The notes: generated by a model from the letters alone, not told the origin. A stretch of DNA of 64,000 bases from an uncultured Nitrospiraceae bacterium (GCA_963727775.1 CAVSHB010000003.1:160001-224000), one strand, 5' to 3'; shown: positions 40,484 to 64,000, counted from the stretch's first letter. A program made the numbers and translations.

Positions 40484-41029
40484 GGCTCGGCATAAATATG
40501 TCGAGACTGGGCTGAAACTTCATGGACTTTTGCAAACAAACGTTAAGGTTGATGGAAATCTAACAGTAGAGACCTATGAACAGCGTAGAAAGCGTTTGGG
40601 CCTCGACGATATGCCACCCCGGGAAGCGCATGCGAAATTTCGAAGGGAACATCCGGAATTGGAGGAAGTGAATAGGAAGTTATTGGAGGAGGGGAAGTGA
40701 TAGAAATCGAGGTTCTCTTAGTCAGTGTTTTGTCAGACGTGGAGAGATGCGGAAGATAGATACGTAATTGGAAAGGCTGTGCAGTGTACGGTGTTCTGAT
40801 CCTACCTTCCAGGTTGCGGTGATGAGACCTTCTAATAGAAATACGGAGAGTTATGTCCTTCCTGCTATAACGCACCTTAAAGACCCGATATAATATTGCT
40901 GAGTACGACCGTCAATACACGCAACGTAGGAGTGAAGAGTATTTCCGACTGATATGGCTATTCCATATAAATTCCTTCCGATTGACATTTCTGAGGGATT
41001 ATCATTATCTATATAATTAGGATTTGTAA

Positions 41030-41806: not shown

Positions 41807-41884
41807 AGATAGCCTTCCTGTACTTCTTCCTCTTCTAAGGAAGAAGTCAAGTTTTTTTCTTGCCTTTCTCTGTTAAAGCTGAAA

Positions 41885-42060
41885 TGGTTGTGGTGTTACT
41901 TCAACCTTTTACCTTTTCACCTAACCTCTTTTGTTCTACGAGCCTTATAGCTCAACTTACCTTATTCAGGTCGAAAGGATGGTGGAAGTTGACCAAGCTG
42001 AATCCTACAAGCCTTCTTTTTAGCTTACGAAGAAGCACGGTCCTTCTTCCACCACAACCA
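41885..42060 (-). ncRNA. Putative bridge/seek RNA of IS110 element 1
   Basis: Closed by the 11-bp stem TGGTTGTGGTG/CACCACAACCA; internal loop with a central hairpin; located downstream of the recombinase. Confidence 0.6.
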
Positions 42061-42077
42061 CTGTTTACTCCCATATA

Positions 42078-43355: not shown

Positions 43356-43544
43356 GGTGATCTCTCCTTTCTGTTATGTTGTTTGGATATTCAACTTTAA
43401 CAGTTCGAGATTGCCATGTCTTTCCCTCTTCCTTATAGTAAGCTGTATTAAACACCATCAGAGTCTGCTATAATTCCGTTTAGTACAAAGGGTATTAGAA
43501 AAACTATCTAATCCCTGGTTAAGCAAAAAAGATAAAGTGCACAC

Positions 43545-44087
43545 ATGAAACAATTGAAAATCAGCAAAGCCTTCATGTTGATGGAATCGGGGCCGGTTGT
43601 CCTTATTACAACGAATGACGGAAAGAAGGACAACATCATGACGATTTCATGGACAATGGTTTTGGATTTCACACCAGTCTTTGCCATAACCACTGGAGAA
43701 TGGAATTATTCTTTTACGGCTCTTCGGAAAACAAAGGAGTGCGTTATTTCAATCCCCACGGTTGACATGCTTGATAAAGTCGTTGGAATAGGAACATGCT
43801 CCGGTGCCGATACAGACAAATTTACCAAATTCAAGCTCACTCCCGTAAAAGGTAGAATAGTAAAAGCGCCATTGATAAAAGAATGCCTCGCTAATATTGA
43901 GTGTAAAGTCGCCGACATCGTCAAAAAACACAACGTTGTCGTTCTCGAAGGCGTTGCGGCATACTTTGACACCTCGCGCAAAGAGAAACGAACTGTTCAC
44001 GCTGTCGGTGACGGTACATTTATCATGGATGGGCGCAAACTATCCCGAAAAAAAATGATGGCATCCAAAATTCCAAATGGGATCTAA
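43545..44087 (+). CDS. Flavin reductase family protein (DIM6/NTAB)
   Basis: GPVVLITT, NIMTISW, IGTCSGADTDKF, APLIKECLANIEC. Confidence 0.88.
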   Translation: MKQLKISKAFMLMESGPVVLITTNDGKKDNIMTISWTMVLDFTPVFAITTGEWNYSFTALRKTKECVISIPTVDMLDKVVGIGTCSGADTDKFTKFKLTPVKGRIVKAPLIKECLANIECKVADIVKKHNVVVLEGVAAYFDTSRKEKRTVHAVGDGTFIMDGRKLSRKKMMASKIPNGI

Positions 44088-44217
44088 CCCAGACAGGCCA
44101 GAAAAACAATAATGTCTTCCTCCTACCTCACATATCAGCCGTGATATAATTGTGAGTATACAACCAGAAATGAACAAAACCGACTGGGACAATAAAGACA
44201 TCTACGACGGAGGACGC

Positions 44218-44529
44218 ATGCACTGGTATCACTACATTGCCTACTTCTTTGGTGGGGCGTTCCTTGCGAACGCGGTGCCCCACTTCGTAAGCGGAGTGTC
44301 TGGGCATTCGTTCCCCAGCCCGTTCGCGCATCCACCCGGGGAAGGGCAGTCGCCCGCGCTGGTGAACGTGCTTTGGGGCTTTGCGAACCTCATCATCGGC
44401 TACTTGCTTATCTGCAAGGTGGGAACCTTTGAGCTGCGCCGCTGGCGGCACGTCCTTGTGGCCGGGGCTGGACTCTTGATGGCCGTGATGCTCGCGCGGG
44501 CATTCGGGAAGCTCTACGGCGGGTTGTGA
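44218..44529 (+). CDS. Small membrane hypothetical protein
   Basis: MHWYHYIAYFFGGAFLANAVPHFVSG...; GGAGG RBS before ATG 44218; three TM segments. Confidence 0.7.
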   Translation: MHWYHYIAYFFGGAFLANAVPHFVSGVSGHSFPSPFAHPPGEGQSPALVNVLWGFANLIIGYLLICKVGTFELRRWRHVLVAGAGLLMAVMLARAFGKLYGGL

Positions 44530-44680
44530 TAGGTACCTCTCTCTCGACCCTCCAAATTTGGTGATCCGAAATCAATAATCCTTCCTGTACTAAACGTGCC
44601 TGAACGGGCTTCGCAGAAGGAATACTCCACATAGGAATACGCATTTCGAAAATTACTAACTCCTGTTGATTATGAAGAGA

Positions 44681-44707
44681 AGAACTAAACCGCTGCGCGG
44701 TGGTAAC
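44681..44707 (+). repeat. 27-bp direct repeat, copy 1 (IS91-like end sequence)
   Basis: AGAACTAAACCGCTGCGCGGTGGTAAC, identical to 53039-53065. Confidence 0.9.
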
Positions 44708-44971
44708 CGTGTGCCATCATGAACTGGTTGATACAAGAACAATTCGTTTTCATATTGGGAGTTCTGGATACCCATTCATCCCTCCTGACAGGGAGATTTT
44801 AGAGGGAGCGGCCGACCACACCTTCTCCCTATAACTCGCGTTCGAGTCCACATCCAAAAGTTTAATCAATAGTTTGAATTAAGTGTTGATTACCAGTTAA
44901 AGGACACATAAGAAAGAGACAGGATGTCCCGGGCTATCATAATGAACTCTCCTCAAAAAGGGGCTCACCTA

Positions 44972-46153
44972 TCACGAAGCCAACATCAATCTATTTATCA
45001 TCTCTTCATATTCTGAAGTAATCTTCTCAACGGCGAAATCTTTTACCCTTTCTTTTCCCAATCTGGAAAACCTTTCTCTTAGCACCTTGTCCTTGAGTAA
45101 TTTCAATACTGCCCTTGAGAGGGCATCAATGTCATCAGTAGGAACAAGTACCCCATATTTATCATCCTGTAATATCTCACGAGGCCCTGATTTGCAATCT
45201 GTGGATACAACTGGCGTATCACACGCCATCGCCTCTAGCACAACCATTGGTAACCCCTCGTAACGGGACGAAAGAACAAAGACATCTGCCTTGGATATAA
45301 ACTTGTAAGGATTATTCTGAAATCCTAAAAAAGAAACCTTCTCTGTTATTGCCAGTTCATTAGCAAGCCTGGACAGAGATTCCTTTTCCGGCCCTTCGCC
45401 CAAGATTATTAGTCTCGCATCCATTTCTTTGATAACGTTGCTGAAAGCTTTAAGAAGTATTTCAAAACCTTTCTGGGCGACTAATCTGCCGACAGATAAG
45501 ATAACCGGAACTCCCTCCCTGAAAAAAACATGCGCTACAGGGTTATTGCATAATTCTGAGATACACTTCAGGTCTGTCGGGTTATGAATAACCTCCACAT
45601 TAGGGGGCAGGATATTAAATTCCCCAACGAGATCTGCCTTAACCCCTTCTGACACCGCGATGATTTTGTCTGAAAATCTATAAAATATCTTGACCAGAAG
45701 GGTTGTAGAAAACCATAGCATTCGTCTTCCCGCCTTTGTCTTTGCTGCCTCACTAAGAGTTATGTGCTCGCCGATGATGATTTTTTTCCTGAAGAGTAGT
45801 CCTGCGGAAATAGCCATGATATTACTGTGGGTTAACATGCTCACGATGACATGAGGTTTTTCTCTGAATACTGCCCGAAGAAAACCTGCATACTGTCTCA
45901 GCTTATCAATAGAACTGTCTGATTTCCTTTGAACAACGATCAATTTCAGCCCTCTAGGGATAAAATCTCTGTAAGGTGAATTCTCATATGGGTATAACAG
46001 GACGAGAACAGGTTTGATTCTCTCTCTATTGATATGACTGATAATCTCTACCATGACCCTCTCAGCGCCGCCACCTTCCAGAGAGGGTATAAAAAACAAG
46101 GCTTTCACTTTTTGACCATGAAGGTCTTTTGCGATAGAAGATGAGAATTTCAT
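44972..46153 (-). CDS. GT4 glycosyltransferase (WabH-like)
   Basis: GGGAERV, VGRLVAQKGF, SSRYEGLPMVVLEAMA, DCKSGPREI. Confidence 0.9.
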   Translation of the reverse strand: MKFSSSIAKDLHGQKVKALFFIPSLEGGGAERVMVEIISHINRERIKPVLVLLYPYENSPYRDFIPRGLKLIVVQRKSDSSIDKLRQYAGFLRAVFREKPHVIVSMLTHSNIMAISAGLLFRKKIIIGEHITLSEAAKTKAGRRMLWFSTTLLVKIFYRFSDKIIAVSEGVKADLVGEFNILPPNVEVIHNPTDLKCISELCNNPVAHVFFREGVPVILSVGRLVAQKGFEILLKAFSNVIKEMDARLIILGEGPEKESLSRLANELAITEKVSFLGFQNNPYKFISKADVFVLSSRYEGLPMVVLEAMACDTPVVSTDCKSGPREILQDDKYGVLVPTDDIDALSRAVLKLLKDKVLRERFSRLGKERVKDFAVEKITSEYEEMINRLMLAS

Positions 46154-46166
46154 AGTCTAAGTTTTG

Positions 46167-47285
46167 TCATCGTGCTAAAATAATGCTTTCCCATTGTTCC
46201 ATCGATGTTTCAAGATCAAAGCCCTGCGCCCTCTTGAGAGAAAGGTTTGAGAGGGTGTCTCTGAGTTTGCTATCCGATAAAACTTTTATCAGCGCATCTG
46301 CAATGGCATTAGGGTCTTCTGGCGGGACAAGGAGACCGTATTCACCGTTGTCAACAATCTCTGCAGGGCCCGAAGGGCAATCGGTAACAACCACCGGAGC
46401 CCCTGTTATCATAGCCTCCGGGATAACATTGCCGAAGCCTTCATATCTCGAAGCCAGACAAAAGACTGTTGCCATTTTCATGTATTTATAGGGATTGAGC
46501 TGCGCCCCTAAAAAAATCACGTCTTCTTCAAGTTTCAATGATCTACTGAGATTCATCAGTTCCCCTCTCTTATCTCCGTCACCGATGATCACGAGCTTGC
46601 TCGGCACTGAAGACCTGACTATTCTGAACGCCCTCAGGAGGATGTCCAATCCCTTTTGATGGACAAGCCTGCTCGCAGTGACGATAACAGGGCCATCGAT
46701 GGAGATGCCCGGGTCATCTTTGGACATCTCGGATATCATTGCATGGTTCAAGGGGTTATAAACGACCTCGACCTTTTTATCCTTGAGTCCAAAATTCTCC
46801 AAGAGGTCTTCCTTCTCTCCATTGGATACGACGATCATAGACTCGGCGTCCTGGTAGGCCATTTTTGTAAGCAAGGTCCACAGGGCCTTGAACCTCTCTG
46901 TCCTGAAATTGTCTTCGATATAGGCGGTCATATTTACCGTGTCATGCACGATATGCATAAAGTTGCATAAACTGAGCTTTCTTGCAATATAGCTGATTAT
47001 CGCGGGATACCACATGCAACTGACCACTACATCGGCCTTTAAGTGCTGCAAAGCCTTTTTGTATTTAGGGATGATAGAGGTGATCCTGGTATCGCGTGTC
47101 TCATTCAGGCTAAGCCTCTCGATATTATTTGGAAGCTCATCAAGAAAAAAGCCTCTCTCCTGAAGCAGTAAGAGCTTTGGATTGATCCTGCCCCTTTGCT
47201 TTAAGAAGGGCAAAAAGTTTCTTGCCATCTTGGCCTCTGTGCCGCCAAGGGTTAGGGAGCCGATGAAGAAAACGACATTTTTCAT
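46167..47285 (-). CDS. GT4 glycosyltransferase (WabH-like)
   Basis: GGTE, SRLVHQKG, ASRYEGFGNVIPEAM, DCPSGPAEI. Confidence 0.9.
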   Translation of the reverse strand: MKNVVFFIGSLTLGGTEAKMARNFLPFLKQRGRINPKLLLLQERGFFLDELPNNIERLSLNETRDTRITSIIPKYKKALQHLKADVVVSCMWYPAIISYIARKLSLCNFMHIVHDTVNMTAYIEDNFRTERFKALWTLLTKMAYQDAESMIVVSNGEKEDLLENFGLKDKKVEVVYNPLNHAMISEMSKDDPGISIDGPVIVTASRLVHQKGLDILLRAFRIVRSSVPSKLVIIGDGDKRGELMNLSRSLKLEEDVIFLGAQLNPYKYMKMATVFCLASRYEGFGNVIPEAMITGAPVVVTDCPSGPAEIVDNGEYGLLVPPEDPNAIADALIKVLSDSKLRDTLSNLSLKRAQGFDLETSMEQWESIILAR

Positions 47286-47396
47286 TATTACTCACCTTTT
47301 GAAGACTAAGTCTTGTTCGAGGAGAAATTTTCTGTCTAGTAATGATAACATTTCAATAGACATCTTTTTTTTAATTCTGGGAGAACAGACTTTAGA

Positions 47397-48674
47397 ATGA
47401 ATAATTCCACCTTATTGTTGACCTCGGCTTGGTACGGCGACAGTCCTCTAACACTGACGTTTCCATCTTCTTGGGATGTGGTGTCCATAGGGCTTAAGAA
47501 CGTCGGTACACTGAAGGAAGAAGAAATAGAAGAAGACATCAAGAATCCTTATGGATGCAACCCGTTGTGTAAGACAGTCAAAGGCAAAGAAAGGATCGTT
47601 ATTATCATAGACGATCTACAGAGACCGACCCCTCTTCACATGGTCGTCCCTCTTGTCATCAAAGAGTTAAGAAGTGGGGGTATCGGTCTTGAGAAGATAT
47701 CTCTGGTCATGGCTACGGCGTGCCACCGCCCGGCTAAAACCGAGGATTTCGCCAAGAAAGTCGGGCAAGATATTACGGAAATGGTACGTACCATTTCCCA
47801 CAACTGTAAGGACGACCTCGTTAATCTGGGCAGCTCATCACAGGGCACCCCCATTCATGTCAATCGTTGGGTAGCAGAAGCCGACTTCAGGATCGCCATA
47901 GGCGGCGTCTATCCTCACGAACGAGCCGTGTTCGGCGGAGGTTCCAAGCTTGTACACCCGGGAGTATGCGGCATTGAAACAGCGCGGCACCTTCACAAAC
48001 TTCCGAACGAAAAGTACAACGATTCCACCGGCAATTCCTTTAGAAAGGATATTGAAGAGGTTGCAGAGAAGGTTGGTCTCGATTTTTCGATAAATGTGCT
48101 CTTGAACGAAACGAGGGGCATCGGCCGTATCTTTTCCGGAGACAAACGCGCGGCGCACCTGGAGGCGATTAAGACGGCTGAGGTCCTGTATGCGGAGGAG
48201 CCGGTCTCTGACACAGACATTGTGATCACCAACACGTATCCTTTCGACACCTCTCTTCATTTTATATCAAAAGGCACATGGCCCCTAAACTATGTGCGTG
48301 AAGGAGGTTCGAAAGTTGTCATCGCTTCATGCCCTGAAGGCCTCGGCTTTCACGGACTTTCGCTGATATCGCAGCCGGGCCTCCCGGGTTTTATTCGCAG
48401 GATGAGGGCTTTATCTCGATCGGATATACGTGCTAAAATACACTCGGCATTCGGGAAAAATGACGGGATTCTTTTCCTCTCTCCAAATCTCACAAGAAAC
48501 GATGCGAGGAAGATATATCCAAAGGCACGCGTGTTTCGGGATTGGGAATCACTTTTGAAGAAATTGTGCGATAGACACAAGAGGCAAAGAGTCAGGGTTG
48601 CCGTATATAAATGTGCCCCACTCTTGTTTACGAGCCCTCTTTGCAGGATGCCCCGTGTCTTGACACGGGGATGA
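47397..48674 (+). CDS. Lactate racemase (LarA) superfamily protein
   Basis: IIIDDLQRPTP, ATACHR, GTPIHVNR, YPHERAVFGGGSKLVHPG. Confidence 0.85.
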   Translation: MNNSTLLLTSAWYGDSPLTLTFPSSWDVVSIGLKNVGTLKEEEIEEDIKNPYGCNPLCKTVKGKERIVIIIDDLQRPTPLHMVVPLVIKELRSGGIGLEKISLVMATACHRPAKTEDFAKKVGQDITEMVRTISHNCKDDLVNLGSSSQGTPIHVNRWVAEADFRIAIGGVYPHERAVFGGGSKLVHPGVCGIETARHLHKLPNEKYNDSTGNSFRKDIEEVAEKVGLDFSINVLLNETRGIGRIFSGDKRAAHLEAIKTAEVLYAEEPVSDTDIVITNTYPFDTSLHFISKGTWPLNYVREGGSKVVIASCPEGLGFHGLSLISQPGLPGFIRRMRALSRSDIRAKIHSAFGKNDGILFLSPNLTRNDARKIYPKARVFRDWESLLKKLCDRHKRQRVRVAVYKCAPLLFTSPLCRMPRVLTRG

Positions 48675-48851
48675 ATGCATGCCTTGCGCAGAGGGTTATT
48701 AGGGAAACGCGAAGGCTCCCTAATCCTCTAAGGCCATTGGCTTGTCATGGTCTGCACAGCGTCTTCATGCTGTGCTATAGATGCCCCGCTGCTTGCCGCG
48801 TGGGAGTTTCACTAAGCAATCCGAGCCACGCTTATACCTGAGGCCTTTTCA

Positions 48852-49986
48852 ATGAGCAGCCGATCCCTTGTCAGCATCCTTACTCCCGTATATAATCACA
48901 CCTATATCGAACATACGATACAGAGCGTCCTGAATCAGACCTATGAAGACTGGGAATGGATAATCCTGGATGACGGTTCCGATGACGGGAGCGCGGAAAT
49001 AATCCATAGCTTTAAAGACAGCAGGATTCACTACTCTTACCAAGACCATGTTGGCTTCCCTCATCTGTCCAGCACCTTTAATAAGGCCCTAACCTTGTGC
49101 ACGGCTGACCTGGTGGCCATGCTTGACAGCGATGACTATTGGCCTGCGTATAAGCTTGCCGTCCAGATCCCAACGCTGGACGATCCAGATGTGGTCCTCA
49201 GTTACGGAGAATCCACCCTTGTCAATCCTCAGGGCAAGAAAATAGGCACGATGGGGATTCCCGAGGACCCGAGCATCGCATTAAACGACCCCGTCGGCTC
49301 TGCCCTCAAGATCCTGCTCCTACCATACTGTTTTCTTGCCACTAGCACCATCGCACCATTTTCTCCACATGGGCAGTTTCGTGGAGGCTGAAGGGCTCTT
49401 TCAGGCATATCCCACCTGGACGCGGCTCTCAGTGGAAGGTCGGTTTGCTGCCCTGCCTATCTGCATGGGCTTTTGGCGACGGCACCCCCGCTCAATACTG
49501 CTGAATTTCGATCCGGTTCAGAGATTTATGTCTGCCACCCGTTTTATGAGGACCTTTGTGGCAGAACACGAGGATCGACTCAAGGCTTTAGGAATGCCCC
49601 ATCGCATCGAGGAACTCGAAGACCTATAGGAAGACTACGGCAAAAAGAGTCACCTCGACAATTATTACATCGCCTATAACAAATCACTGATGTTGGCACG
49701 CATGTCATGTTTTCAGGAGTCACAGAGCGAGATGCACCAGTTCTGCCGGGAACATCCGTCGGTCAAAAATCGCCTTATATGTGCCCTTGTGATACTTTCA
49801 CGCCTCATCGGGACCCGACTTGGTCAATCCCCTGGCAGATTCTTTAGCCAAGATCAGGACATTCTTCTCCAAGTAGAGGAACTGACGCTACGTCTGAGGT
49901 ACTACTTAGTGGCTGAAAGAGAGATTTTGATTTCAGACGTGGCGGGGCTTCCTCCCGATAACAGCCTCATCGCACCGTTCACCTGA
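48852..49986 (+). pseudogene. GT2 glycosyltransferase, fragmented
   Basis: LVSILTPVYN, ILDDGSDDG, MLDSDD; continues across frameshifts and stops in ORFs 49336-49629 and 49690-49986. Confidence 0.75.
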
Positions 49987-50338
49987 AAGTCCATATTGAT
50001 CGCTTGACACATTAGGTGAGAATTTCCAAGAGAAACTAAAGCTAAAGTATTATATAGGAGCCTGGCCCTCTTGTACGAACTGCAATAAACAAGCCTGATC
50101 CCATTGCCACGCTCCTGTCATCCCTCCTGCGGTGGTCAAATTGTTCATAATATGCCTGCTTCTGATAGCCTTTTCCCATGAAAGACCTGTCACTGTTGAC
50201 TACAAAGGGGAGGCCCATTGTCGTTAGTCCGTTAAGCCCTTGTAGGAAAATGAGTTGCCGTTTGCCGGTTCTCTTAACGTGAAGCCGGCAAACGGCAATA
50301 TCGCACTGCTTATGGCTCGGGGCTTCCATGAAAAAATT

Positions 50339-52777: not shown

Positions 52778-53038
52778 TCCATCCTCCTTACAAATTCGGT
52801 CACTATTCCTATCGCTATCGTGATAATTATATCAAAAGAGGAAACGTAATATAGGATATATGTCTGCTTTCTTCAAAATTAGTCAATTGAACCTGGAATA
52901 ATGTCATCCTTATAGGGTGCGGGCAACGGGGTCTTTCTTCTTACGGTCAAAGCTGGAGGTTGAGTCTGCCATCACAACAGTTTCCGCTTGTACTCCAGAG
53001 ATTAGGCAGAATATTCAGAAGTCTCAGTTTCTATGCGT

Positions 53039-53065
53039 AGAACTAAACCGCTGCGCGGTGGTAAC
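53039..53065 (+). repeat. 27-bp direct repeat, copy 2
   Basis: Identical to 44681-44707. Confidence 0.9.
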
Positions 53066-53223
53066 GAGGCGTCGATCTTTTCTGGATAAAGATAGACCTT
53101 TTTCTGAGTTGTAGAAGTTAGCCCGTTATCTCCCCCCTTGTTGAAGAGTCGAAGTCTTTTTACAATCTCCTTTGTTTCCCCGTCGGCCTTCGTCGGCGCA
53201 TATCGATTCAAAGGAGATGTAAT

Positions 53224-54066
53224 ATGAGCACGTGGAGAGAACAGATGTTGACAGACCTTTAGTTGAAAGGCATCACCCCCAGGACCCAGAATAAATATCT
53301 CAGAGAGGTTAACATGAAGGCGGATTATTTTGATAAACCGCTTGAGGAACTTAGGGAGAAAGAAGTAAAGGATTATCTGGTTCATATGCTGGATACCAGG
53401 AAGTTATCAAGAGGTACGTACAGAGGCTATGTGGCAGGAATCAAGTTTTTGTATAAGACAACCTTAAATCGTGAAGAGGTGGTAGAGAAGATCCAATATC
53501 CGAAGGCCAAAAAAACGCTGCCCGTAGTGCTGGATCTTGCTGAAATCAAGACTTTGCTTTCCGTCATGGAGAATCTTAAGCACAGGGCGCTGCTGACGAT
53601 TACCTATTCCGCAGGACTGAGAGTCAGCGAAGCAGCAAAGCTGAAGGTGACCGATATAGACAGCAAGCGGATGATGGTACGTGTGCAACAGGGCAAGGGT
53701 AGGAAGGACCGCTATAGCATCCTGTCGCAAACCGCCCTCGAGTTATTGAGGCAATACTGGCGGCAGTATCGTCCAAAGGAATGGTTATTCGAGGGACAGA
53801 AAGAAGGTACCCACATATGCTATACGGCGATACGGCAGATATTTGTTGAAGCCATGAAGAGGGCTGGCATTACAAAACCGGCGAGCCCTCATACCCTAAG
53901 GCACAGTTTTGCCACTCATCTGATAGAGGCGGGGACCAGCCTGCACCATGTCCAGTTGCTCCTGGGCCACAGGTCTCCCACAACCACAACCGTTTATCTT
54001 CATGTCAGCAAGATGAACCTCGCACAGGTCACCAGTCCCCTCGATAGTATACCCGAAGAGCTTTAA
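53224..54066 (+). pseudogene. Tyrosine recombinase (IS91-associated) with early in-frame TAG
   Basis: AAGGAG RBS and ATG 53224 give MSTWREQMLTDL*LKGITPRTQ; catalytic motifs YSAGLRVSE, HTLRHSFATH, LLGH, TTVY are intact. Confidence 0.85.
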
Positions 54067-55158
54067 AGCTTTTAACGGTATCATCGATGCGGACGTCTCA
54101 GGGCGTCGAGGTGGCCGATATCTTCCGTCAGTACGGTCAAGATCCCACCGGATGCCTATTAATCATCTGCGTGCTATGCACGCCATTGAGGTGTGCAGGA
54201 CTGCAATTCTTGGCGGACATAGGTATAAGTACACTTGCGGCCATGTAGACACATCTTACAACTCTTGCCGGAACAGGCACTGTCCCAAGTGTCAGACACT
54301 GCAGAAGGAAAAGTGGATAGAGGCCAGGTGTGAGAAGACCTATTGCCCATTCAATACTTCCAATGTGGGCTTCACCATACCATCAGAGTTAAATCCCCTG
54401 GTCATTATGAACCAGAGGGTCATGTACAACATATTATTCTGCTCGGTATCCGAGACACTTATGGAGCTCTCCAATAATCCGAAACACCTCGGCGCACATA
54501 CAGGCTTTATCGGCATCCTTCACACCTGGGGACAAAACCTTATGGATCATCCCCATATTCACTGTGTCGTACCCGGCGGCGGATTGTCACCTGATGGAAA
54601 ACATTGGGTATCGTGCAGGAAAGGTTTTTTCATGCCTGTAAGGGTTATGTCCTCATTGTTCAGGGGCAAGTTCCTGGACCATCTCAAAAACAGGTTTGAA
54701 TCAGGTGATCTTATCTTCCCTGGCGGTATCCGTCATCTTAAAGACCCCGGAACCTTTGAGGTGTTCAGAGGACAGTTCTACCATAAGAAGTGGGTTGTAT
54801 ATTGCAAGCCGCCTTTTGACGGCGCCGAGGGTGTCTTTAAGTATCTGGGCAGATATACCCACAGGATTGCTATCAGTAATAATCGTGTCCTAAACGTTGA
54901 AGACGGCAATGTTTCCTTCCGCTGGCGGGACTATGCCGATGGTGATAAACAAAAGATCATGACTCTTAAGGCCGATGAGTTCATAAGAAGGTTCCTTCTT
55001 CATGTGCTTCCGCATCGATTTGTGCGCATAAGATTATGTGTTTAAGCACATAACCTGATTTATGTTATATATTCACTTATGTTGCGTCGTTTGTGAAAGG
55101 CCTTGTTATTGCACAATGTCATCGTTAACGACACAACATAAGTAAATCCCTCTTCGGG

Positions 55159-56154
55159 TTAAAGTGCTTTTAAGAATGCCATCAACCCCGGCTGATCTTT
55201 CCACCGTCTTGATTGCTCTGAAGTAAATATCTCACAGTGGGCAAGTGCCTTTGCCTTCATTTCGAGATCGACCTCAGCATAGACATTTGTGGTATCTAGC
55301 GACACATGCCCCAGCCATGCACGGATTGTATTAATATCCACACCTGCGCGAAGAAGGTGAACTGCGCAGGTATGACGAATTATATGTGCACTGACTCTTT
55401 TCGTTCTCATTGAGGGGACTTTGTTGCTTGCTTTGATAACATAACGCCTAACGAGGGCATGAATGCCGAAGCGAGTGATTGTCTGCCCCCGACAGTTGAG
55501 GAAAACCTGTTCGCTATCCTGGCGATCGGCAATGAGAGTGCGTAAAGTATTGGCTGTTAAAGACCATAAAGGACAGATTCGTGTCTTGCCTCCCTTGCCT
55601 TTAATCTTGACTGAAAGCGAATAATCCAGGTCGAGATCGTCTACAGTCATATTCGCAGCTTCATGGGCGCGGGCGCCAGTATTGTAAAGAAAAAGAAGTA
55701 CGGCATAATCTCTAAAGCCTTGTTTGGTGGAAGTAACGGGAGCATTAAGCAGGGCATCCATTTCTTGTTTGTCGAGATAAGACATCGCAGCCTTTGCAGT
55801 TTTTTTGAAAGGGATAGCTCTGATCTGTCCACACCAGATGATGTGTTCCGGACATCGTTCGCCGATAAAACCGGCGAGGGCGTGAATTGCGGCAAGGCGC
55901 TGGTTGCGAGTGGCTATAGAACAGGATCGATGCTCCTCTATATAAAGCAGAAAAAGACGAATTACCTCAGGGGATATATGCTCTACAAGCAGCTTGTCTA
56001 TAGGTTTTCTGACCTTCTCAGCGATGAAAGGGAGCATCAAGGCCAGAGCATCGCGATAACTGGATTGTGTATTTAGCGACAGATTACGCTCTTCCACCAA
56101 GTATTCCATAAGGAAGCGTCGCACCCAATATCCGATAGAAGTTACGTTAGACAT
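55159..56154 (-). CDS. RitC-type tyrosine recombinase
   Basis: TRNQRLAAIH, LYNTGAR, HIIRHTCA, WLGHVSLDTTNVY. Confidence 0.9.
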   Translation of the reverse strand: MSNVTSIGYWVRRFLMEYLVEERNLSLNTQSSYRDALALMLPFIAEKVRKPIDKLLVEHISPEVIRLFLLYIEEHRSCSIATRNQRLAAIHALAGFIGERCPEHIIWCGQIRAIPFKKTAKAAMSYLDKQEMDALLNAPVTSTKQGFRDYAVLLFLYNTGARAHEAANMTVDDLDLDYSLSVKIKGKGGKTRICPLWSLTANTLRTLIADRQDSEQVFLNCRGQTITRFGIHALVRRYVIKASNKVPSMRTKRVSAHIIRHTCAVHLLRAGVDINTIRAWLGHVSLDTTNVYAEVDLEMKAKALAHCEIFTSEQSRRWKDQPGLMAFLKAL

Positions 56155-57091
56155 GATTCACGTCCGATAGAACATAATGTTCAAAACGCAAATTTGCTTC
56201 CCGCAAAAGATCAGGAGTCATGCTCAAATAGCATTGGGTCTCCGCCACATCAGTATGGCCCAAATAGGTTGATAATTGAGGCAGCAAGCGCTGGACATCA
56301 GCGCCTTCCCGGTACCAGGCTTCAAGACGGTGAACTGAAAAAGTGTGACGAAGGTCGTGAATCCTGGGATAGTATCGAGTGCCGTCCCGGCGAGGCATCC
56401 CGGATAGGTTTCGCAAACGACTGAAAGTTTTTTGCATGCGGCCATAGGATAAAGCGTGGCCAGTGCGTGTGGCAAAAAAGGCGGAATCTTCCTTAAGTCG
56501 GCAGGGCAACAGTCGCCTTTTTCCCAGATAGGAGTCAAGGTGGTCAGTTAACCGAGGGCCGATGGGTACGAGACGTGTCTTATAGAATTTGGTATTGCGC
56601 ACTGTGATAAGGCTATCCGAAACGTTAACATCAGCAATCGTTAGAGAAAGCGCTTCGCTGATACGAAGGCCTGTTCCATAAAGGGTAAGCAAAATGGTTC
56701 GGAAGGTGGTTGCCTGAAGAGGACTTATTGGGGATTTAAGCGAGTTGGTAGCGGAAAGGAGGCGGTGCAGTTCCTCGGTGGTGTAAATATATGGTTCCAG
56801 AGTCGCCGGACGTTTAGGTACCATCTTTGGAAGCGGAGACTTGTCGATATGACCATGGGTCAGAGCAAAGCGATAGAAACCACAGAGGACTTCATACTTC
56901 CGGTGCCAGAAGGTAGTGATCGGACCTTCACCTGCAAGGAATGCTGCTGCAGTATCGGGATTAACTTCTTCGATCTCTATATCGCCCATAGCTTTGCAAA
57001 AAGATCTGAGTACCACAGCATCAGACCGGTAACACATACCAATGGACTGTTTTAGCGACACATACTCGGTAACAAGTTCTGAGAGTTTCAT
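56147..57091 (-). CDS. RitB-type tyrosine recombinase
   Basis: YGTGLRISEA, TKFYKTRLVP, PRIHDLRHTF, LSTYLGH. Confidence 0.9.
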   Translation of the reverse strand: MKLSELVTEYVSLKQSIGMCYRSDAVVLRSFCKAMGDIEIEEVNPDTAAAFLAGEGPITTFWHRKYEVLCGFYRFALTHGHIDKSPLPKMVPKRPATLEPYIYTTEELHRLLSATNSLKSPISPLQATTFRTILLTLYGTGLRISEALSLTIADVNVSDSLITVRNTKFYKTRLVPIGPRLTDHLDSYLGKRRLLPCRLKEDSAFFATRTGHALSYGRMQKTFSRLRNLSGMPRRDGTRYYPRIHDLRHTFSVHRLEAWYREGADVQRLLPQLSTYLGHTDVAETQCYLSMTPDLLREANLRFEHYVLSDVNHV

Positions 57092-58328
57092 TCCAGCCCT
57101 CCCATATCAAACTTAGCTACCTCGCGAAGACCTGACAGATTCACCTTGGCATAGATCCTCGTGGAGAGAGAACTTCGATGCCCTAGGTGATCGCCGACCT
57201 CCTTGAGGGAGAAGCCCTCGGCAACCAGGTGGGCGGCGCACGCATGCCGCAATGAGTGGGGCCCATGATGGTGAGTGCGTATCCCGAGCTTCACCATTCT
57301 GTTACTGACCACAGGATAAAGTGCTCCTAATGAAAAAGGACGATATGGGGGCAAGAGAGTGAGAAATATCTCTCGATATGAAGAGTGGGGACGCACTTCC
57401 TGTAAATAGCGGATTATCGCGTTGCCTACTATTGGGATCAATGGGTATGTTTGTCTTCCTCTCAGCTTAACTCGGGGTACCGACATAAGTCTCTGTTCCC
57501 AGTCGATATCGTCAAGCCTGAGAGTTGCTACCTCAGTTGATCTCAACCCATAGATCGCAAAAAGCATCACGATGGGTTTGTCTCGTATGTCACTGGCTTG
57601 ATCTGTCTCCATGCTCTCTATCAAGAGTCTCACGTTTCCCCAAGATGGTCCCGACGGCAATTGTTCTTGGGCAAAGATACGAGGGCCACGTATATCGGGG
57701 GCAATTGAAGACGAACACCACCCCCGTGAAGCCGCGTACTTGAAAAAGGCCTTCAGCGCGGTCGCCATGTGTTTAACCGATATGCGACAATTGCCCTTGT
57801 CACCGTAATGGGTAAGAAACGCGTCAATATCTTTGAGGCAAACGGCTGAGATATCACAACTCCGAGTGCCATACCAGCGTAGAAACCGTTCAACGTAAGA
57901 GCAGTTCCCTCGGATAGTCTGAGAAGTGAACCCTCGTTCGTTCTTCATCCATGTCCTGAAATCTTCAAGCAAATGACCAAACGGAATGGAAGTATCTTCT
58001 CTCCAACAGCCCAAAAAACGTAGCCACGATCTTGCTGCATTGACAAAGCGACTGCGAGTACAGTGCGGATTAAGCGCTTTTCCCCAATATCGTTCCCGTT
58101 CTGTCCATCCTCGGGCAACAGCTCGACCTGATTCAGGGTTACTCCGTTTTCAAAAGAAATACGTAGCTTCTTTGCGACCCATAAAAGTTCTCGCGCAATG
58201 TTCTGTAAAGTCGAGAGAGAATATCCTTCTTGCTCGCAGTGCTTAAGATAACGCTCCCTCTCCTCTTTGTACGGGGCCTTCTTGTGACGGGATAGAATTG
58301 AGAGTTTTGTGTAAAGCTTTTCAAACAT
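57088..58328 (-). pseudogene. RitA-type tyrosine recombinase, 1-bp frameshift near 58120
   Basis: N-terminus MFEKLY...ERERYLKH (GGAGG RBS) joins AVARGW...SWLRFLGCW in another frame; YGLRSTEV, HSLRHACA, LGHRS, TRIYAK. Confidence 0.85.
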
Positions 58329-59106
58329 GACCGGACCTCCTCTAATAGAGACTTTCCAGCCATATAACGGCAATTACTTATGTGTTGTCAAATCAAAAAT
58401 AATCATTGCAAATTAAGAAAATTGACTGACTTCACAACATAAGTGAATACATAACATAAATCAGGCACTTCGGACTCCTCGCAAACAGAAAGCGTAAAGA
58501 CAACATCGCGCTATGCCGTAAGCTCATCGGCAGTTGTAAAACCGAAACAAAAGAAGAAGAAGAAGAAAAATCAGAGACCTGGCAGGATCAGTTGCTCAGA
58601 ATCTACGGTATCGATATCAATACCTGCCCGGTTTGCAAGAAGGGCACAATGGTCACGATTGAGTATTTGCTCCCTTCCAGGTGCAATAGCCCTCCGGATC
58701 GATACTGATGCACACCGGCGATAGCTCAAAAATCATAGCTCTATCAACCTGCGAAAACAGCATCCTGTTTCGCTATGCTCCCCTATTGTCTGAAATCAGA
58801 CCTTGGGATACTATCCAGCTGCAATGGTCGCAATCTCAGCCTCAATTTTCGTATCAGGATGATCTCATGCAGATCAAAATAAGACAGATGCTCCATAAAC
58901 CATATCCTCTTCGATAGAAAAAGTTCCGGGAGAATTAATCGAATCCCCATATCCGGCGCACCGGCTTAGTTATATATAGAAATGGCATAAGATCAAACTT
59001 CCCCATTCAATCATAAGGGAGACTAATTTTATAGCTATTAAAAAATAGAAACCTCCTGTAAGAATAAGTTTATGGAGAAACAAAATTCTTTTGACAGGAG
59101 GTTTCT

Positions 59107-60399
59107 ATGGAACAAGTAGATGGTATCAGACTTAGGGAGTTTCGACAAGTCAAGAAAGAGATACGTGGCTCCGATCAGTATTTGATCATCGGCATCGACG
59201 TGGCTAAAGAGAAGCACAATGCCTTTTTCGGCACGGCTAACGGCAAAACGCTGCACAAGGGAGTGATCTTTGACAACACGATTGAAGGATTCGAGAAACT
59301 GCTGACGCTGACAGAAGCGCTTAAGGTCCAGCATGACCTTACAAAGGTGGTCTTTGGTCTTGAGCCCACAGCCAATTACCATAAGCCTCTGGGAGAGCAT
59401 CTTATTAAGTGTGGGCATATGGTTGTTTTGGTAGCGGGGACGGCAGTAAAAAACAACCGCACGCTTCTGGATGGCAGATGGGATAAGCACGACACCAAGG
59501 ATTCCTCTAACGTAGCCGACCTCATTTCCCAAGGGAAATTCCTATTCTATGAATATCCGGATCCGAAGATGCGGGATCTGAGGAATCTCCTTTCCTTAAA
59601 GAGACGACTCAAGAAAGAGGAACATGGCCTCCGGGTTCGCATCCGCAATCAGCTTCTGGCCCAGTATTTCCCTGAAATGGACCGCCACTTCGGCCCAGCG
59701 GTGAGCATGGCTGTAGTCGGACGCTGTCTTAATCCCTCGGTGATCGCCGGGATGGAATTCGATGAATTCCGCAGGCACGTTGCCCTCAGCAGAATGAATA
59801 TTGCCCAACAAAAGCTGCTGCAGGCGATCTGGCAGATAGCCCCTGATTCCATTGGATGTTATGTAGGAGACGCAGTGCCGTTCGAGGCGAAGGTGATGGT
59901 ATCCATGCTTAATCAGGTGCGAGAGACGATCAAAGAGGTGGAAGATAAAATAGAGGATATGTGCCTACAGTTTCCGGAATACCCATGCCTTTTGAGTATC
60001 CCTGGCTTTGGGCCGGATGTCTCATCAAAGGTTCTCGGGGCGATAGGTAATCCCTTTCGCTTTACGAGCGACAAGCAGGTCCTGAAGATGGCTGGTTTCG
60101 ACCTTTGCGCGGAGCGAAGCGGAAAGACTTCAAACAGCGTAACGCCGGTAATCTCCAAACAAGGGAAAGCCGATCTTCGCTACGCCTTATATCAGGCTGC
60201 TCTAATCGCTTCCTTTCATAACAAAGATTTTACGATTTATTACACCAATAAGCTCAGAGGTCGGCAGAGGGAAAAGGGAATTAGTACGAAGATGCGTGTA
60301 AAGATAGCCGCAAAGCTTTTGGTTATCGCATGGACCTTGATGAAAAAGAAGGAGCTATTCGATCCAAAATATCTCAATAAGGGGGATATCCAAATATAG
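59107..60399 (+). CDS. IS110-family DEDD recombinase/transposase
   Basis: IGIDVAK, GLEPTANYH, KHDTKDS, LLSIPGFG, AERSGK, ISKQG. Confidence 0.95.
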   Translation: MEQVDGIRLREFRQVKKEIRGSDQYLIIGIDVAKEKHNAFFGTANGKTLHKGVIFDNTIEGFEKLLTLTEALKVQHDLTKVVFGLEPTANYHKPLGEHLIKCGHMVVLVAGTAVKNNRTLLDGRWDKHDTKDSSNVADLISQGKFLFYEYPDPKMRDLRNLLSLKRRLKKEEHGLRVRIRNQLLAQYFPEMDRHFGPAVSMAVVGRCLNPSVIAGMEFDEFRRHVALSRMNIAQQKLLQAIWQIAPDSIGCYVGDAVPFEAKVMVSMLNQVRETIKEVEDKIEDMCLQFPEYPCLLSIPGFGPDVSSKVLGAIGNPFRFTSDKQVLKMAGFDLCAERSGKTSNSVTPVISKQGKADLRYALYQAALIASFHNKDFTIYYTNKLRGRQREKGISTKMRVKIAAKLLVIAWTLMKKKELFDPKYLNKGDIQI

Positions 60400-60464
60400 G
60401 CCACATCAAAAGAACTTAACTGAGGGCTTCCTGTGAAGCCGTTTCTGTTCTGGAGGCCCCAAAA

Positions 60465-60650
60465 ACAAGACGCAGAGAGCCCGAGCTTGGCTTAGTTGAG
60501 GCGAAAGACCTCGTGGAGAACAATATAGGGCCTATCACTGAACTTGAGAGTCTGGATAAGGGATGATGGGCGGTACGCTCAATGCGGAACACGTCGGATA
60601 AACGTAACTATCAGAGATCAAGTTCGATTGTAGTGAGAGAGTGCGTCGAG
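60465..60650 (+). ncRNA. Putative bridge RNA of IS110 element 2
   Basis: GGCTTAGTT-[GAGG CGAAAGA CCTC]-GTGGAGAAC loop matches the insertion site; outer pairing GACGCA/TGCGTC; boundaries approximate. Confidence 0.8.
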
Positions 60651-61037
60651 AAAAAATACTATCGTCCAGATGGACGTACGGCAGACTATTGTTCTTGCAA
60701 GATCTCGGATAACGATCATTGATATTTAAGTAAATTTCCCAGATGTTTTTTGTCTTGACAGGAGGCACTATAGGATGTTCTCCACACGTTATTCCGCAAC
60801 TTCGCAGCGGAATAACGCTTATTCGTAATCAATAAAACCCGCCTTTTTTTGTGAAAAACATCCCCGTGTATTACGTAAAAACAGAACGAGAATCCGCAGC
60901 CCCAAACAGCCGTTATCTTTTTCAGGCGTACATCCATAGGTATCGCCTACAGCCTTTGTATGGCGGTAATTTTTACTTGCAAAAGAAAGTGGCCTTTGCT
61001 AATAATAACTCACCTTAGTTTTTAAAGGAGACCTTAT

Positions 61038-61635
61038 ATGCATGTAAAGATGAGCAGCCTGATCAAGACGTTTGGTATGGTAGCGGGGTTGATAGTGGTC
61101 TTCGCTTTGTGGGCGTCTGTTGCCATCGCTGGTCTTTATTGCCTGTTCAAACACACAAGCCATAGAACTTACACTCAATAATACCCCTGCCCAAGTCTAT
61201 TTCAGCCCCAGTGGTGGTGCTACGGATGCGGTTGTAAAGGAAATAGGGAAGGCTAAGTCTGAGATTTTAGTCCAAGCATACTCTTTCACAGGCAAGGAAA
61301 TCGCAAAGGCTCTTGTGGCTGCCCATAAAAGAGGAGTTCATGCAGAAATTATTCTCGATAAAAGCAACAGGTCTCAAAGATATTCCGCTGCTGATTTTAC
61401 TCGCAATATGGGTATCCCTACTTACATTGATGCTGAACACGCCATTGCCCATAACAAAATCATGATAATAGACAAGGAGACTATCATTACAGGCAGTTTC
61501 AATTTTACAAAGGCTGCTGAGGAAAAGAATGCCGAGAACTTATTAATTTTGAAAAACAGGGAACTTGCCAAACAGTATATTGATAATTGGAATAAGCATA
61601 GAAAGCATTCTGAGGAATATAAAGGCAGGGATTAA
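61038..61635 (+). CDS. Phospholipase D-family endonuclease (Nuc-like), apparent frameshift in the leader
   Basis: VYFSPSGG, VQAYSFT, AHNKIMIID (single HKD), TGSFNFT, NAENLL. The RBS-bearing ATG at 61038 is out of frame with the catalytic ORF 61120-61635. Confidence 0.85.
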
Positions 61636-61656
61636 ATTTACCACTCGGAGGAAACC

Positions 61657-62142
61657 ATGAAAAAAATAACATATGAACCAATCGGCATAATCCACACTCC
61701 CTTTAAGGACACAAAAGAAATGCCGATACAAGCTAAAGGGGGAAAGGGCATCAAAGGAACTATAAAAATTAAACCCGCATTTGCTGAAGGACTAAAAGAT
61801 ATCGAGGGGTTCTCACACATTATATTGATTTATAATTTCCATCGGTCGAAAGGGTATTCTCTTGTGGTTAAGCCATTTTTAGATGATAAGTTGCGTGGAG
61901 TATTTGCAACAAGAGCACCCAAGCGTCCGAATTCCATAGGGATGTCGGTTGTCAGGCTCAAGAAAGTGGAAGGTAAAATCCTTTATATTGAAGATGTTGA
62001 TATCGTGGACGGGACTCCATTATTGGATATAAAGCCATATATACCTGCTGTTGATGTATTTAAAGCAACAAGTGTCGGGTGGCTTTCCAAGAAGACGAGG
62101 GGGTTCAGAAAGGCTAAGGCGGATGCGAGGTTTAAAGCATAG
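61657..62142 (+). CDS. tsaA: tRNA m6t6A37 methyltransferase TrmO/TsaA family
   Basis: PIGIIHTPF, GVFATRAPKRPNSIG, DGTPLLDIKPY. Confidence 0.9.
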   Translation: MKKITYEPIGIIHTPFKDTKEMPIQAKGGKGIKGTIKIKPAFAEGLKDIEGFSHIILIYNFHRSKGYSLVVKPFLDDKLRGVFATRAPKRPNSIGMSVVRLKKVEGKILYIEDVDIVDGTPLLDIKPYIPAVDVFKATSVGWLSKKTRGFRKAKADARFKA

Positions 62143-62187
62143 ACTATCCTTTTAGAAATTTTACTAATTCTATTTGCGGAGGACTAT

Positions 62188-62604
62188 ATGGTATCAACAG
62201 GCAGAATATCTTTAAGCACAAAAGGCTTTAGCGATGTTCTTGATATTACCGATAAAGTTGCAAGAATGGTTGAAGATTCAGGCATTCAGAATGGCTTGGT
62301 AAATGTTTTCTGTTCTGGTTCTACAGGTGGTATTACCACAATCGAATTTGAGTCAGGTGTCATTAACGACTTAAAGAAAGCCATAGAAAAGATTGTTCCG
62401 TCAAATATCCCTTATGAACATGACAAAAGATGGGGTGACGGTAATGGATTTTCTCATGTGAGGGCAGCTCTTATGAAACCTTCCCTTACAGTCCCTATTG
62501 TCAAAGGAAAACTAACGCTGGGTACATGGCAGCAGATAGTCTTTATGGATTTTGATAATCGGGGAAGGGATAGGAAGGTTGTTGTGCAGGTTGTGGGGGA
62601 GTAA
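62188..62604 (+). CDS. yjbQ: YjbQ/UPF0047 family protein
   Basis: DITDKV, YEHDKRWGDGNGFSHVRAAL, LGTWQQI. Confidence 0.9.
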   Translation: MVSTGRISLSTKGFSDVLDITDKVARMVEDSGIQNGLVNVFCSGSTGGITTIEFESGVINDLKKAIEKIVPSNIPYEHDKRWGDGNGFSHVRAALMKPSLTVPIVKGKLTLGTWQQIVFMDFDNRGRDRKVVVQVVGE

Positions 62605-62918
62605 GCAGGTTGTTTGGTACACATAATAATTATCACATACTGCTGTGTAGCCTGATAATTCTATTTATTTCTCCAGGAAACCTATTGAACAATGAAAATT
62701 TGACTCTATTCGCATTTATTCTCTTCGCGGGATGATTACAAGAGATTACTCGTAGACGGGTTACGGCCAAGGAAAATCAAGGAAGAGGAGTCCGAAACCT
62801 GTTGCCTTGATTTGTCTTAATTTTCATGATAACTTATAACTAAATAAGGATAGGGCAATCTGATGAATGCGTCCATGCAGCCTACATTTAAAAACCACAG
62901 AAACAGAAGAGACTTGTA

Positions 62919-63068
62919 ATGTCTGTAATAGAATACTCAGATATAAAAATAAGTCTGGATGATGAAGGATATCTCGAAAATTTGGATGACTGGAAGAGAA
63001 AAGTGTCGTGAGCATTGGCAGAGAAAGAGAGTGTCGAAGAATTCACCAAAGACAGAAAGGAGGTGTAG
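62919..63068 (+). pseudogene. DsrC/TusE-like N-terminal remnant
   Basis: MSVIEYSDIKISLDDEGYLENLDDWKRKVS*ALAEKESVEEFTKDR; internal stop and truncated. Confidence 0.6.
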
Positions 63069-63136
63069 TATAAAATATTAAATATTAGCTCATAGAAAAA
63101 AGGTTGTGATTTCAAAAAAAAGAAGGAGGTATAGAC

Positions 63137-63313
63137 ATGAACTTAGAACTAACGGACAAAGAAAAAAATGCGCTTTTAGAAGTACTTAATGACTATATTC
63201 CAGAACTCAGAGGTGAGATTGCTTCGGGCGGTAAACACGATTTTAAAGAGGGACTGAAGGCTGAAGAGTCGGTATTAAAAACAATACTCGAGAAATTGAA
63301 GGCGCTGAAATAA
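63137..63313 (+). CDS. Small 58-aa helical hypothetical protein (not in ORF track)
   Basis: AAGGAGGT RBS; MNLELTDKEKNALLEVLNDYIPELRGEIASGGKHDFKEGLKAEESVLKTILEKLKALK. Confidence 0.7.
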   Translation: MNLELTDKEKNALLEVLNDYIPELRGEIASGGKHDFKEGLKAEESVLKTILEKLKALK

Positions 63314-64000
63314 GTATCCTATACGACGAAGCTGAATATGTAGTCTTTTTGTATCATGGAGGTGTATGCACTTCACAGCACCTGTCCCAAGGGGGGGCTT
63401 TTTAGGTGATGGTAACTCTGTGCCTATACTATCTATGTTGCCCGATCTATCAAGAGCATACACCCCTCTGTGATACAACACCTTGAAGATGACCCAGTAA
63501 ATACGAAGTATTCCTTTGCTACCAATGAAATCAAGGGCTTAGAGGTTTTTTCTAAGCCCTTTTTGTTGTCCATTCCTACCATTTACGATTCCCAATAGAG
63601 CAAAACTTTCAATATTCGCATACGACACATTTATGCTTCGCCCCACGTTCAAAGTTGAAGCCTGTGATCAGTTGCATCTTTGTAACGAAAAGTCTCGTCT
63701 TTGATCTGCTCCCATTTTGTTTAGTACAAGAGAAAAGTGGCATTCTGATAGCTTCAGGTTCTGTGCATATTTGATGAAGGATTTAACGCATTCATCGTCT
63801 TCTTGGGAACGCGGTAGAGGTGATACTCGGTACCCTTCAGATTCAGCCTATAAAAATCGAGCCACTCTTTCATATTTCAACTAAAAATAGTCTATCGTCT
63901 GTTTGTTTGCGAAACAAAGAAACACCGGCCTCCAGATAACGGTTATTCATATCGGCTTGAAAGACTCCCTGTGCCTCGATTCCCGAGCGTTTAGTATGAA

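Follow-up and report, generated by a model that had tools for sequence, protein, structure and literature searches.

The 64,000-nucleotide stretch of an uncultured Nitrospiraceae genome analysed here (the window; G000:C3:160001-224000, where G000 is the genome under study, with contigs C1, C2 and C3) carries an island in which a recurrent nine-letter motif, GYTTARTWC, had been taken for a recombination site and for the common target of two IS110-family insertion sequences, here called IS110a and IS110b. In the reading that we favor, with a probability of roughly 55%, arms of a ~55-bp site account for three of the motif copies, and gene blocks swap neighbors at the CAGGAAG edge of this site, likely through site-specific recombination by an enzyme, probably of the tyrosine type, that acts in trans and that the searches did not reveal; the guides of IS110a match this junction, and the other copies are unrelated ends of an IS91-family element, hit by IS110b. 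The original prediction as written is not supported, although it touches on a real family of cassette junctions and on two separate cases of RNA-guided parasitism.

The ~55-bp site was reached by aligning empty IS110a targets, and its rough consensus, read on the strand opposite the downstream gene, is ATTWCCRGTTGTACTnnRCACAATTATATCARGTTT-n4-RGTGY-n4-TWC[AG]GAAG, with the two-base core in brackets. An iterated position weight matrix (PWM) returned 80 matches over 14 bits in the genome as against one in the reversed genome, and nhmmer 99 over 10 bits as against none; the copy number is about 80-100. Four sites lie in the window (Table 1), one split by IS110a and another without the −10 block, and none in window positions 1-38600. 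A 23-letter part of the site recurs in 17 of 24 genomes of the same family and in two of 16 other genomes; two viral matches did not score as sites. The conserved boxes run from −53 to −39 (box A) and from −12 to +6 relative to the core, and the site usually contains an extended −10 box (TGnTATAAT), its most conserved center, while the right arm is weakly conserved. Head-to-head pairs of sites, with cores 28-30 bp apart, open divergent arrays at C1:375968/375996, L094:9637/9665 and L107:8830/8860.

The sites are laid out like the heads of cassettes. A gene starts within 400 bp on the promoter side of 52 of 72 sites, a gene ends on the other side of 51 of 68, and 30 of 33 pairs of neighboring sites within 4 kb face the same way; the sites usually head one- or two-gene blocks whose homology breaks inside CAGGAAG. 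The window segment 44112-44586, for example, has a 95% copy on C1 amid different neighbors, with homology stopping at the core on both sides: site 3 is the start of the shared block (C1:475624-476104), and at site 4, a variant with a two-box score of 20.0 that comes almost wholly from the right box, the homology to C1 stops at the core; an arm resembling this variant occurs in L170 and at C1:795235. The flavin reductase block likewise has a 91% copy in L232, behind an intact site and next to a different neighbor, and the homology of block 39146-40867 to its C1 copy stops at site 1. Across 122 metagenome and viral loci the cargo is diverse, with 388 open reading frames (ORFs) in 294 clusters.

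Repeat ends fall within 12 bp of the core at 13 of 82 cores in the genome, as against 1.7 expected and at most seven in 1000 shifts, in a set to which 10 cores were added by hand, in which the 44120 core was entered as 44112, and in which three of the 13 matches are IS110a ends. In relatives and metagenomes the count is 67 of 211, as against a mean of 9.6 and a maximum of 20. Left-side homology ends are partly forced by the shared site sequence itself; at 29 sites of the latter set, homology starts from the core and extends outward, leaving the site behind. The segment from −21 to −3 goes with the upstream block and not with the downstream one: its mean identity is 0.84 in 21 pairs that share the upstream block, 12 of them identical, whereas it is 0.47 in six pairs that share the downstream block and 0.46 in unrelated pairs. 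Shared sequence mostly stops three to six bases past the core. From the break positions and the linkage of this segment it follows that the main crossover lies in CAGGAAG, an interval of about 7 bp.

IS110a occupies this very junction. All five copies in the genome are inserted at WCAG/GAAG, with WC[AG] to the left of the element and [AG]GAAG to the right, and the target of the window copy is GTTTAATAC[AG] (AG being CT on the + strand). Its recombinase and that of IS110b, 27% identical, both score above cut-off for PF01548, PF02371 and NF033542 (DEDD plus Transposase_20), and both elements have a long right end. That of IS110a (41826-42077) has a fold z of −4.5, and the consensus fold of 16 relatives has two loops, with two-sided changes in eight of 43 pairs. 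Predicted target guides lie at 42029-42034 (TTCTTC, pairing with GAAGAA) and 41998-42006 (AGGATTCAG), and predicted donor guides at 41956-41960 and 41934-41938, in a loop that holds GTAAG and TAGAA, matching the element's own ends. In 10 of 12 relatives the right guide agrees with the flank over the first four bases of the latter, with a switch from GAAG to GAGG in guide and flank together, and the final three bases of the left guide match the flank in all 12. IS110a thus carries what is predicted to be a structured RNA whose target and donor guides covary with the flanks. Box A stands 53 bp upstream of the insertion in nine of 16 relatives, including records titled Syntrophales, Smithellaceae and Deltaproteobacteria; further two-box matches number seven in 85 kb around GAAG-guide elements and none in 35 kb around GAGG-guide ones, and four of the five insertions in the genome under study have upstream site blocks.

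The GAGG-guide sister clade inserts at AG/GAGG, with an ATG 6-13 bases past the core at eight of eight loci (L020, L025, L084, L318, L321, L325, L329 and L331), two of which have short frames only; in G030 the GAGG guide matches four of five flanks and the left guide three of five. Its apparent targets, judged from these sequences, are Shine-Dalgarno sequences. Two findings are new here: the IS110a clade targets the cassette junction (in records titled Nitrospirota and Syntrophales), and the target of its sister clade is a Shine-Dalgarno-like GAGG. Three further observations concern the same junction. AGAAGAG, the donor end of IS110a, closes five of 142 sites (C2:280124, C1:475633, C1:140175 and C1:795235 in this genome, and L108:8525), possibly as footprints. 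A 12-bp tandem repeat of the junction, with a second ACAG/GAAG, abuts the right end of IS110a in the window (41818-41830). Other IS110 elements, one of them reversed, sit at the site core at C2:272833, C1:1077764 and L110:10185 and in L220 and L265.

A mechanism that would join these observations is as follows. A block, comprising on the gene strand CT, the site, the promoter, one or more genes and CTTC, would be excised as a circle and would re-insert at another CTTCCTG junction, and a protein would recognize the two conserved boxes (−53 to −39 and −12 to +6) as duplex DNA. With its −10 box each block would be self-expressing, and IS110a may use the junction as a harmless and abundant landing site, as IS1111-attC elements do on integron cassettes. 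The one feature that suggests a tyrosine recombinase, acting in trans, is the 7-bp overlap, within the 6-8 bp, flanked by inverted binding arms, expected of a core site for such an enzyme; the right arm is weakly conserved, and no enzyme was found. Several candidates were considered and set aside. The tandem pair of tyrosine recombinases next to the C2 array belongs to a distinct element, bounded by inverted ends of its own, though it recurs in three of the 122 metagenome loci; G006 and G009 lack small serine resolvases; phage-type integrases are located at tRNA ends; a weak PF00589 match common to site-rich genomes is ModE-like in G006; and the 204-aa ORF upstream of site 1 is present in only three of 24 family genomes. 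A scan for dif-like sequences gave no link with the site. The best match of the relatives' XerC proteins in the genome under study is only XerD (about 38%), and XerC is seemingly missing from this assembly.

Several points weigh against the favored reading. First, neither this genome, nor 20 regions from relatives, nor the 122 metagenome and viral loci have a recombinase consistently beside the sites, and in G006, which has nine site matches, the PF00589 set is limited to XerC and XerD, a single phage-type integrase and a ModE-like protein. Second, no circle or excision product was seen: contigs from four runs, placed against the window, gave no joint that skips IS110a or a cassette, and since their cover is patchy we treat this as neutral evidence; loose contig ends lie at 43445 and 44667-44701. 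Third, the loci were chosen by the motif and are not independent, and the 10 hand-added cores among the 82 and the three IS110a ends among the 13 matches bear on the count of repeat ends. Fourth, the preference of IS110a for full sites is inseparable from guide matching and from survival between genes: upstream site blocks accompany 34 of 237 TWCAGGAAG overall, and 31 of 59 intergenic ones have box A, and therefore targeting beyond the guide is not shown. Finally, some breaks form another class, located within the conserved promoter block and visible in the break histogram, in nine of the 21 same-block pairs and in the comparison of L232 with the window. Homologous exchange explains these promoter-block breaks, which count against a single mechanism.

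The last point leads to the alternative that the site is a spread promoter module and that blocks are shuffled by homologous or microhomology recombination with no dedicated enzyme, like the PeSL cassettes of T4-type phages. The extended −10 box is indeed the most conserved center, many breaks fall at −30 to −11, inside the −10 block, the −21 to −3 segment differs in those nine pairs, and the searches just described found no recombinase. However, breaks are most numerous at the 7-bp edge, past a poorly conserved spacer, and of 31 junctions whose far side did not score as a site (some rows being duplicates), 16 keep WCAG/GAAG and 14 keep box A with no promoter block; the site also has no stem-loop. 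We regard this explanation as unlikely.

It is less probable still that the blocks owe their movement to the bridge recombinase of the IS110a clade, in half-matched or target-target reactions at AG/GAAG. The break position is the position of the IS110a core, the donor-like AGAAGAG ends five of 142 sites, and half-matched partial circles have been reported for IS110 (10.64898/2026.08.14.744561). Against this, box A lies 39-53 bp from the core, beyond the reach of the guides, and IS110a DNA occurs in three of 24 family genomes as against sites in 17 of 24 (many assemblies being fragmented); the AGAAGAG footprint is absent from all 163 metagenome sites, and other IS110s occupy the core too, as parasites would.

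The remaining motif copies lead to an IS91-like element at 53040-60824, whose ends were fixed from copies in G023 and other genomes. Its left end is W-GAAC followed by an ACCGC-nnn-GCGG hairpin (terIS), and its right end (oriIS) a long palindrome finishing GCTTATTC. An integrase gene (53224-54066), whose product falls below the TIGR02249 cut-off, lies upstream of a Y2 transposase gene (about 54087-55053 and 58466-58711) identified by PF04986, PF14319 and NF033538 (363.7 bits). The window copy is broken in three ways: by an in-frame stop in the integrase at 53260, by a frameshift near the start of the Y2 gene, and by a RIT element that splits the latter. Because the tetranucleotide GAAC (GTTC) at 44682 and 53040 adjoins an IS91-family terIS hairpin, these two positions are predicted Y2 nick sites. 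To this extent the earlier view of the motif as nick sites holds, but the integrase and HUH element is not the enzyme for all copies. Six of seven exact terIS matches with 1.5 kb of downstream sequence have the integrase behind them, with flanks that diverge to the left of GAAC. The 11 flanks at the fixed ori end are GTAA (four), GAAC (two), GAAG, GAAT, GGAC, GTTA and GCTA. The solo terIS at 44682 stands in direct orientation 8358 bp upstream of that of the element, and the two identical ends enclose glycosyltransferase, Lar_N and OmpA/VWA genes (44682-53039). Their arrangement is such that this block could be a one-ended capture; no second copy of it was found in this genome. Free-standing, REP-like palindromes of the oriIS end occur without a transposase at C3:224022-224074, just beyond the window, at C1:630584-630628 and at C3:359671.

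IS110b parasitizes this element. Its core is TT in four of four copies, three of them in the same host element, and the window copy is inserted ~45 bp inward of the ori end, within an inverted, subterminal repeat of the terIS motif. Its guides, GGCTTAGTT and GGAGAAC, match the inverted ter motif at 58964/60780, and the former guide (60489-60497) is itself a copy of the 9-mer. There are three IS110b guide variants in the genome, two of which match their own flanks; the guides of one paralog match the oriIS palindrome in which it sits, and those of a third, fragmentary paralog read the terIS junction. The 380-nt end of IS110b folds no better than shuffles (z −0.8), and the guides assigned in it are target guides only.

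Could the IS91-type machinery then also move the cassettes? In a modified form of the earlier model, the long site would serve the Y2 transposase and integrase as an ori end, with CTTC for a terminator, and genes would be captured through rolling-circle transposition. IS91 elements likewise have one long and one short end, CTTC differs by one base from GTTC and CTTG, with one of 277 IS91 insertions at CTTC (PMC13181058), GAAG is one of the 11 ori flanks, and integrase and Y2 elements occur in three of 14 site-bearing regions of G023 and adjoin a site in L018. But the ter and ori ends of the element have only the 9-mer in common with the site, which forms no hairpin, and the genomes do not pair the two: the Y2 gene was found in nine of 41, and within the limits set by incomplete assemblies it is missing from the site-rich G006 (nine matches, 10 contigs) and G022 (14) and present in G028, which has no site match. 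Such a mechanism is very improbable.

As for the 9-mer itself, all nine motif strings listed in the original prediction are present where they had been placed; six are exact in the island (43444, 43478, 44586, 44681, 53039 and 63719), a seventh exact copy appears once IS110b is removed (58964/60780), and 63989 has one mismatch. A claimed absence from the 39-kb core is contradicted by an exact match at 22022; only 1.4-1.5 are expected there. The local excess is real (six in the last 25 kb, where 0.95 would be expected; P=5e-4 by Poisson, the motif having been picked post hoc), and two of 135 25-kb tiles hold six copies; genome-wide, however, the motif is near background (148 observed as against 121-131 expected). 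Of these 148, eight lie inside the ~55-bp site, seven follow a terIS-type hairpin and 133 do neither; therefore the 9-mer is a chance overlap of two longer signals.

The copies, supposed to be one site, fall into four groups: arms of the ~55-bp site (43444, 43478 and 44586, the first two being the two arms of site 2), terIS ends of the integrase and IS91 element (44681 and 53039), the copy ~45 bp inside its ori end (58964/60780), and two that match neither the long site nor the IS91-like ends (63719 and 63989), of which the 63719 match is probably chance or a decayed site. Of the supposed inverted pair around the flavin reductase gene, 43478 is a left arm and 44586 a right arm; they belong to two different sites, which have the same orientation. 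Cargo homology does break at three of the copies, as had been proposed, but at the 7-bp junction beside the 9-mer and not at the 9-mer. Nor do the two IS110s share a dinucleotide position or a target: the IS110a core, AG (CT on the + strand), is three bases beyond the TA that had been assumed, that of IS110b is TT, and their guides differ. By the refuting condition named beforehand, that IS110 insertions prove unrelated to the motif, the proposal fails for IS110a: the 9-mer is absent from four of five insertion sites, only the window copy having it in its target. What survives is the parasitism, since each IS110 has guides that match an end or junction of another mobile unit, although the units are two different ones. 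That the 9-mer is itself the functional site and the shared target of both IS110s is almost certainly wrong: the local excess speaks for it, and the background frequency genome-wide, its presence in the right arm of only four of 72 sites in this genome and none of 211 elsewhere, its occurrence at one of five IS110a sites, and the differing cores and guides speak against it.

The island begins after the tmRNA gene, the only match in an Rfam search (Table 1). Block 39146-40867, which ends at site 1, holds the 204-aa ORF, of no known family; it has five copies in the genome, four of them beside tRNA or tmRNA genes, and an IS200-type element (39905-40483) interrupts the window copy. Site 2 scores 36.3 by PWM as found and 48.5 in its empty form. 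Further on, a group of PLD nuclease, TrmO and UPF0047 genes (61120-62604) is repeated at two other places on C1.

Table 1. Features of the island and of related loci (window positions unless a contig is named).
Feature	Position	Strand	Remarks
tmRNA gene	38617..38966	+	island starts after its end
Cassette site 1	40856..40916	-	core CT 40862-40863; PWM 31.7 bits, nhmmer 27.3 bits; absent from the original prediction
258-aa ORF	41030..41806	+	cargo between site 1 and split site 2; no Pfam match
IS110a	41830..43444	-	core CT duplicated at 41830-41831 and 43443-43444; recombinase 42078-43355; 5 genome copies
IS110a predicted bridge RNA	41884..42061	-	within long right end
Cassette site 2	43443..43496	-	separated by IS110a from its GAAG half (41826-41829); −10-like box 43466-43474
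Flavin reductase-like gene	43545..44087	+	PF01613; cargo of site 2
Cassette site 3	44116..44172	-	core CT 44120-44121; TGATATAAT 44142-44150; nhmmer 18.1 bits; absent from the original prediction
125-aa ORF	44152..44529	+	cargo of site 3; entire block also on C1 amid other neighbors
Cassette site 4	44581..44640	-	core CT 44585-44586; variant without −10 block; the 44586 copy of the original prediction
Solo terIS-type end	44681..44707	+	GAAC and ACCGC-nnn-GCGG hairpin; identical to 53039-53065; cassette-site PWM below −40
IS91-family element	53040..60824	+	terIS at 53040, ori end at 60824
RIT element	55054..58465	-	three tyrosine recombinases, 44-nt terminal inverted repeats; inside Y2 gene
IS110b	58970..60779	+	core TT at 58970-58971 and 60778-60779; recombinase 59107-60399
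IS110b predicted target guides	60489..60521	+	GGCTTAGTT 60489-60497; GGAGAAC 60515-60521
9-mer match	63719..63728	+	PWM −17 at best; no two-box match, no homologous flank, no homology break
One-mismatch 9-mer	63989..63998	+	PWM −44 at best
IS110b paralogs with different guides	G000:C1:293114-293500 and C2:588188-588580		guides match the oriIS palindrome and the terIS junction of one IS91-like element family

It is possible, though we put it no higher than a tentative proposal, that Nitrospirota and Syntrophales possess a second, non-attC cassette platform, in which a dedicated recombinase, acting in trans, excises self-expressing cassettes and stacks them at a ~55-bp site in double-stranded form. 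The junction of this platform would be of such age and abundance that several clades of bridge RNAs have come to be programmed to it, and in one of these clades a single change of guide would have shifted the target to ribosome-binding sites. To our knowledge, integrons are the only well-described general cassette-stacking system in bacteria. A chromosomal system of promoter-bearing cassettes with another site would, if real, escape attC finders and provide an extra route of gene capture for sediment and peat bacteria. The IS110a clade marks cassette junctions in other taxa, so that bridge-RNA guides can be used to find junctions, and the natural guide series (the GAAG junction and the Shine-Dalgarno-like GAGG; three guides for three parts of one IS91-like element) records target change in nature. 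A literature search yielded no description of the site; supplementary catalogs of IS110 targets, which lay outside that search, may list the 9-10-base target.

The integron attC is a hairpin with GTT/AAC boxes that lies downstream of its gene, with IntI beside the array. Like integron cassettes, the blocks described here are arrayed in one orientation, comprise one or two genes, vary widely in cargo and have a fixed crossover at one edge of the site. Unlike them, the site lies at the 5′ end of the gene and holds a −10 box, its consensus has no GTT/AAC boxes, and no integrase stands beside the arrays; nor does it form a hairpin, with fold z values of 0.04 and 0.11 and, among 94 sites, no pair in two dyad registers that beats shuffles or covaries (lowest P 0.07). 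An integron attC was rejected as its identity on these four grounds.

In the PeSL cassettes of T4-type phages, repeated promoter modules bound small shuffled genes (PMC2839356, as far as its available text goes), and the same holds here. The blocks differ in being chromosomal, in having no stem-loop, in that the main breaks fall within 7 bp at the edge, and in that promoterless variants still serve as junctions. A PeSL (a sigma70-like promoter with a terminator stem-loop, neighboring copies of which give mini-circles) was likewise rejected, the −10 box being present and the stem-loop absent.

The element at 53040-60824 resembles the IS91 subgroup with an integron-like tyrosine recombinase, as far as excerpts of the sources describe terIS and oriIS (PMC13181058) and the linked recombinases (10.1101/542381): it has a Y2 transposase with a zinc domain, a terIS palindrome beside GTTC, an ori-end palindrome, no target duplication and an upstream tyrosine recombinase. 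It differs in its loose ori-side target (GAAC in two of 11), in a subterminal inverted copy of the ter motif inside the ori end, and in being broken in three places.

Finally, both insertion sequences invite comparison with the IS1111-group elements that target attC and REP sites (ISKpn4, ISPst6, ISPa11 and IS621; PMC11187229 and PMC11208160, to the extent of their available text). Shared with these are RNA-guided insertion in a repeated site of another mobile system and a guide region downstream of the recombinase, with the two-base core, CT on one strand, recalling IS621 and the reversed guide order recalling IS1111. The target here, however, is a promoter-bearing cassette junction and not attC or REP, and a sister clade, whose guide differs by one base, inserts at GAGG just ahead of start codons. 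The IS1111 group is further marked by subterminal inverted repeats of 7-17 bp; of the ends of the two elements, the long right one was noted in both. Both IS110a and IS110b are new members of the attC/REP-targeting habit, with new targets.

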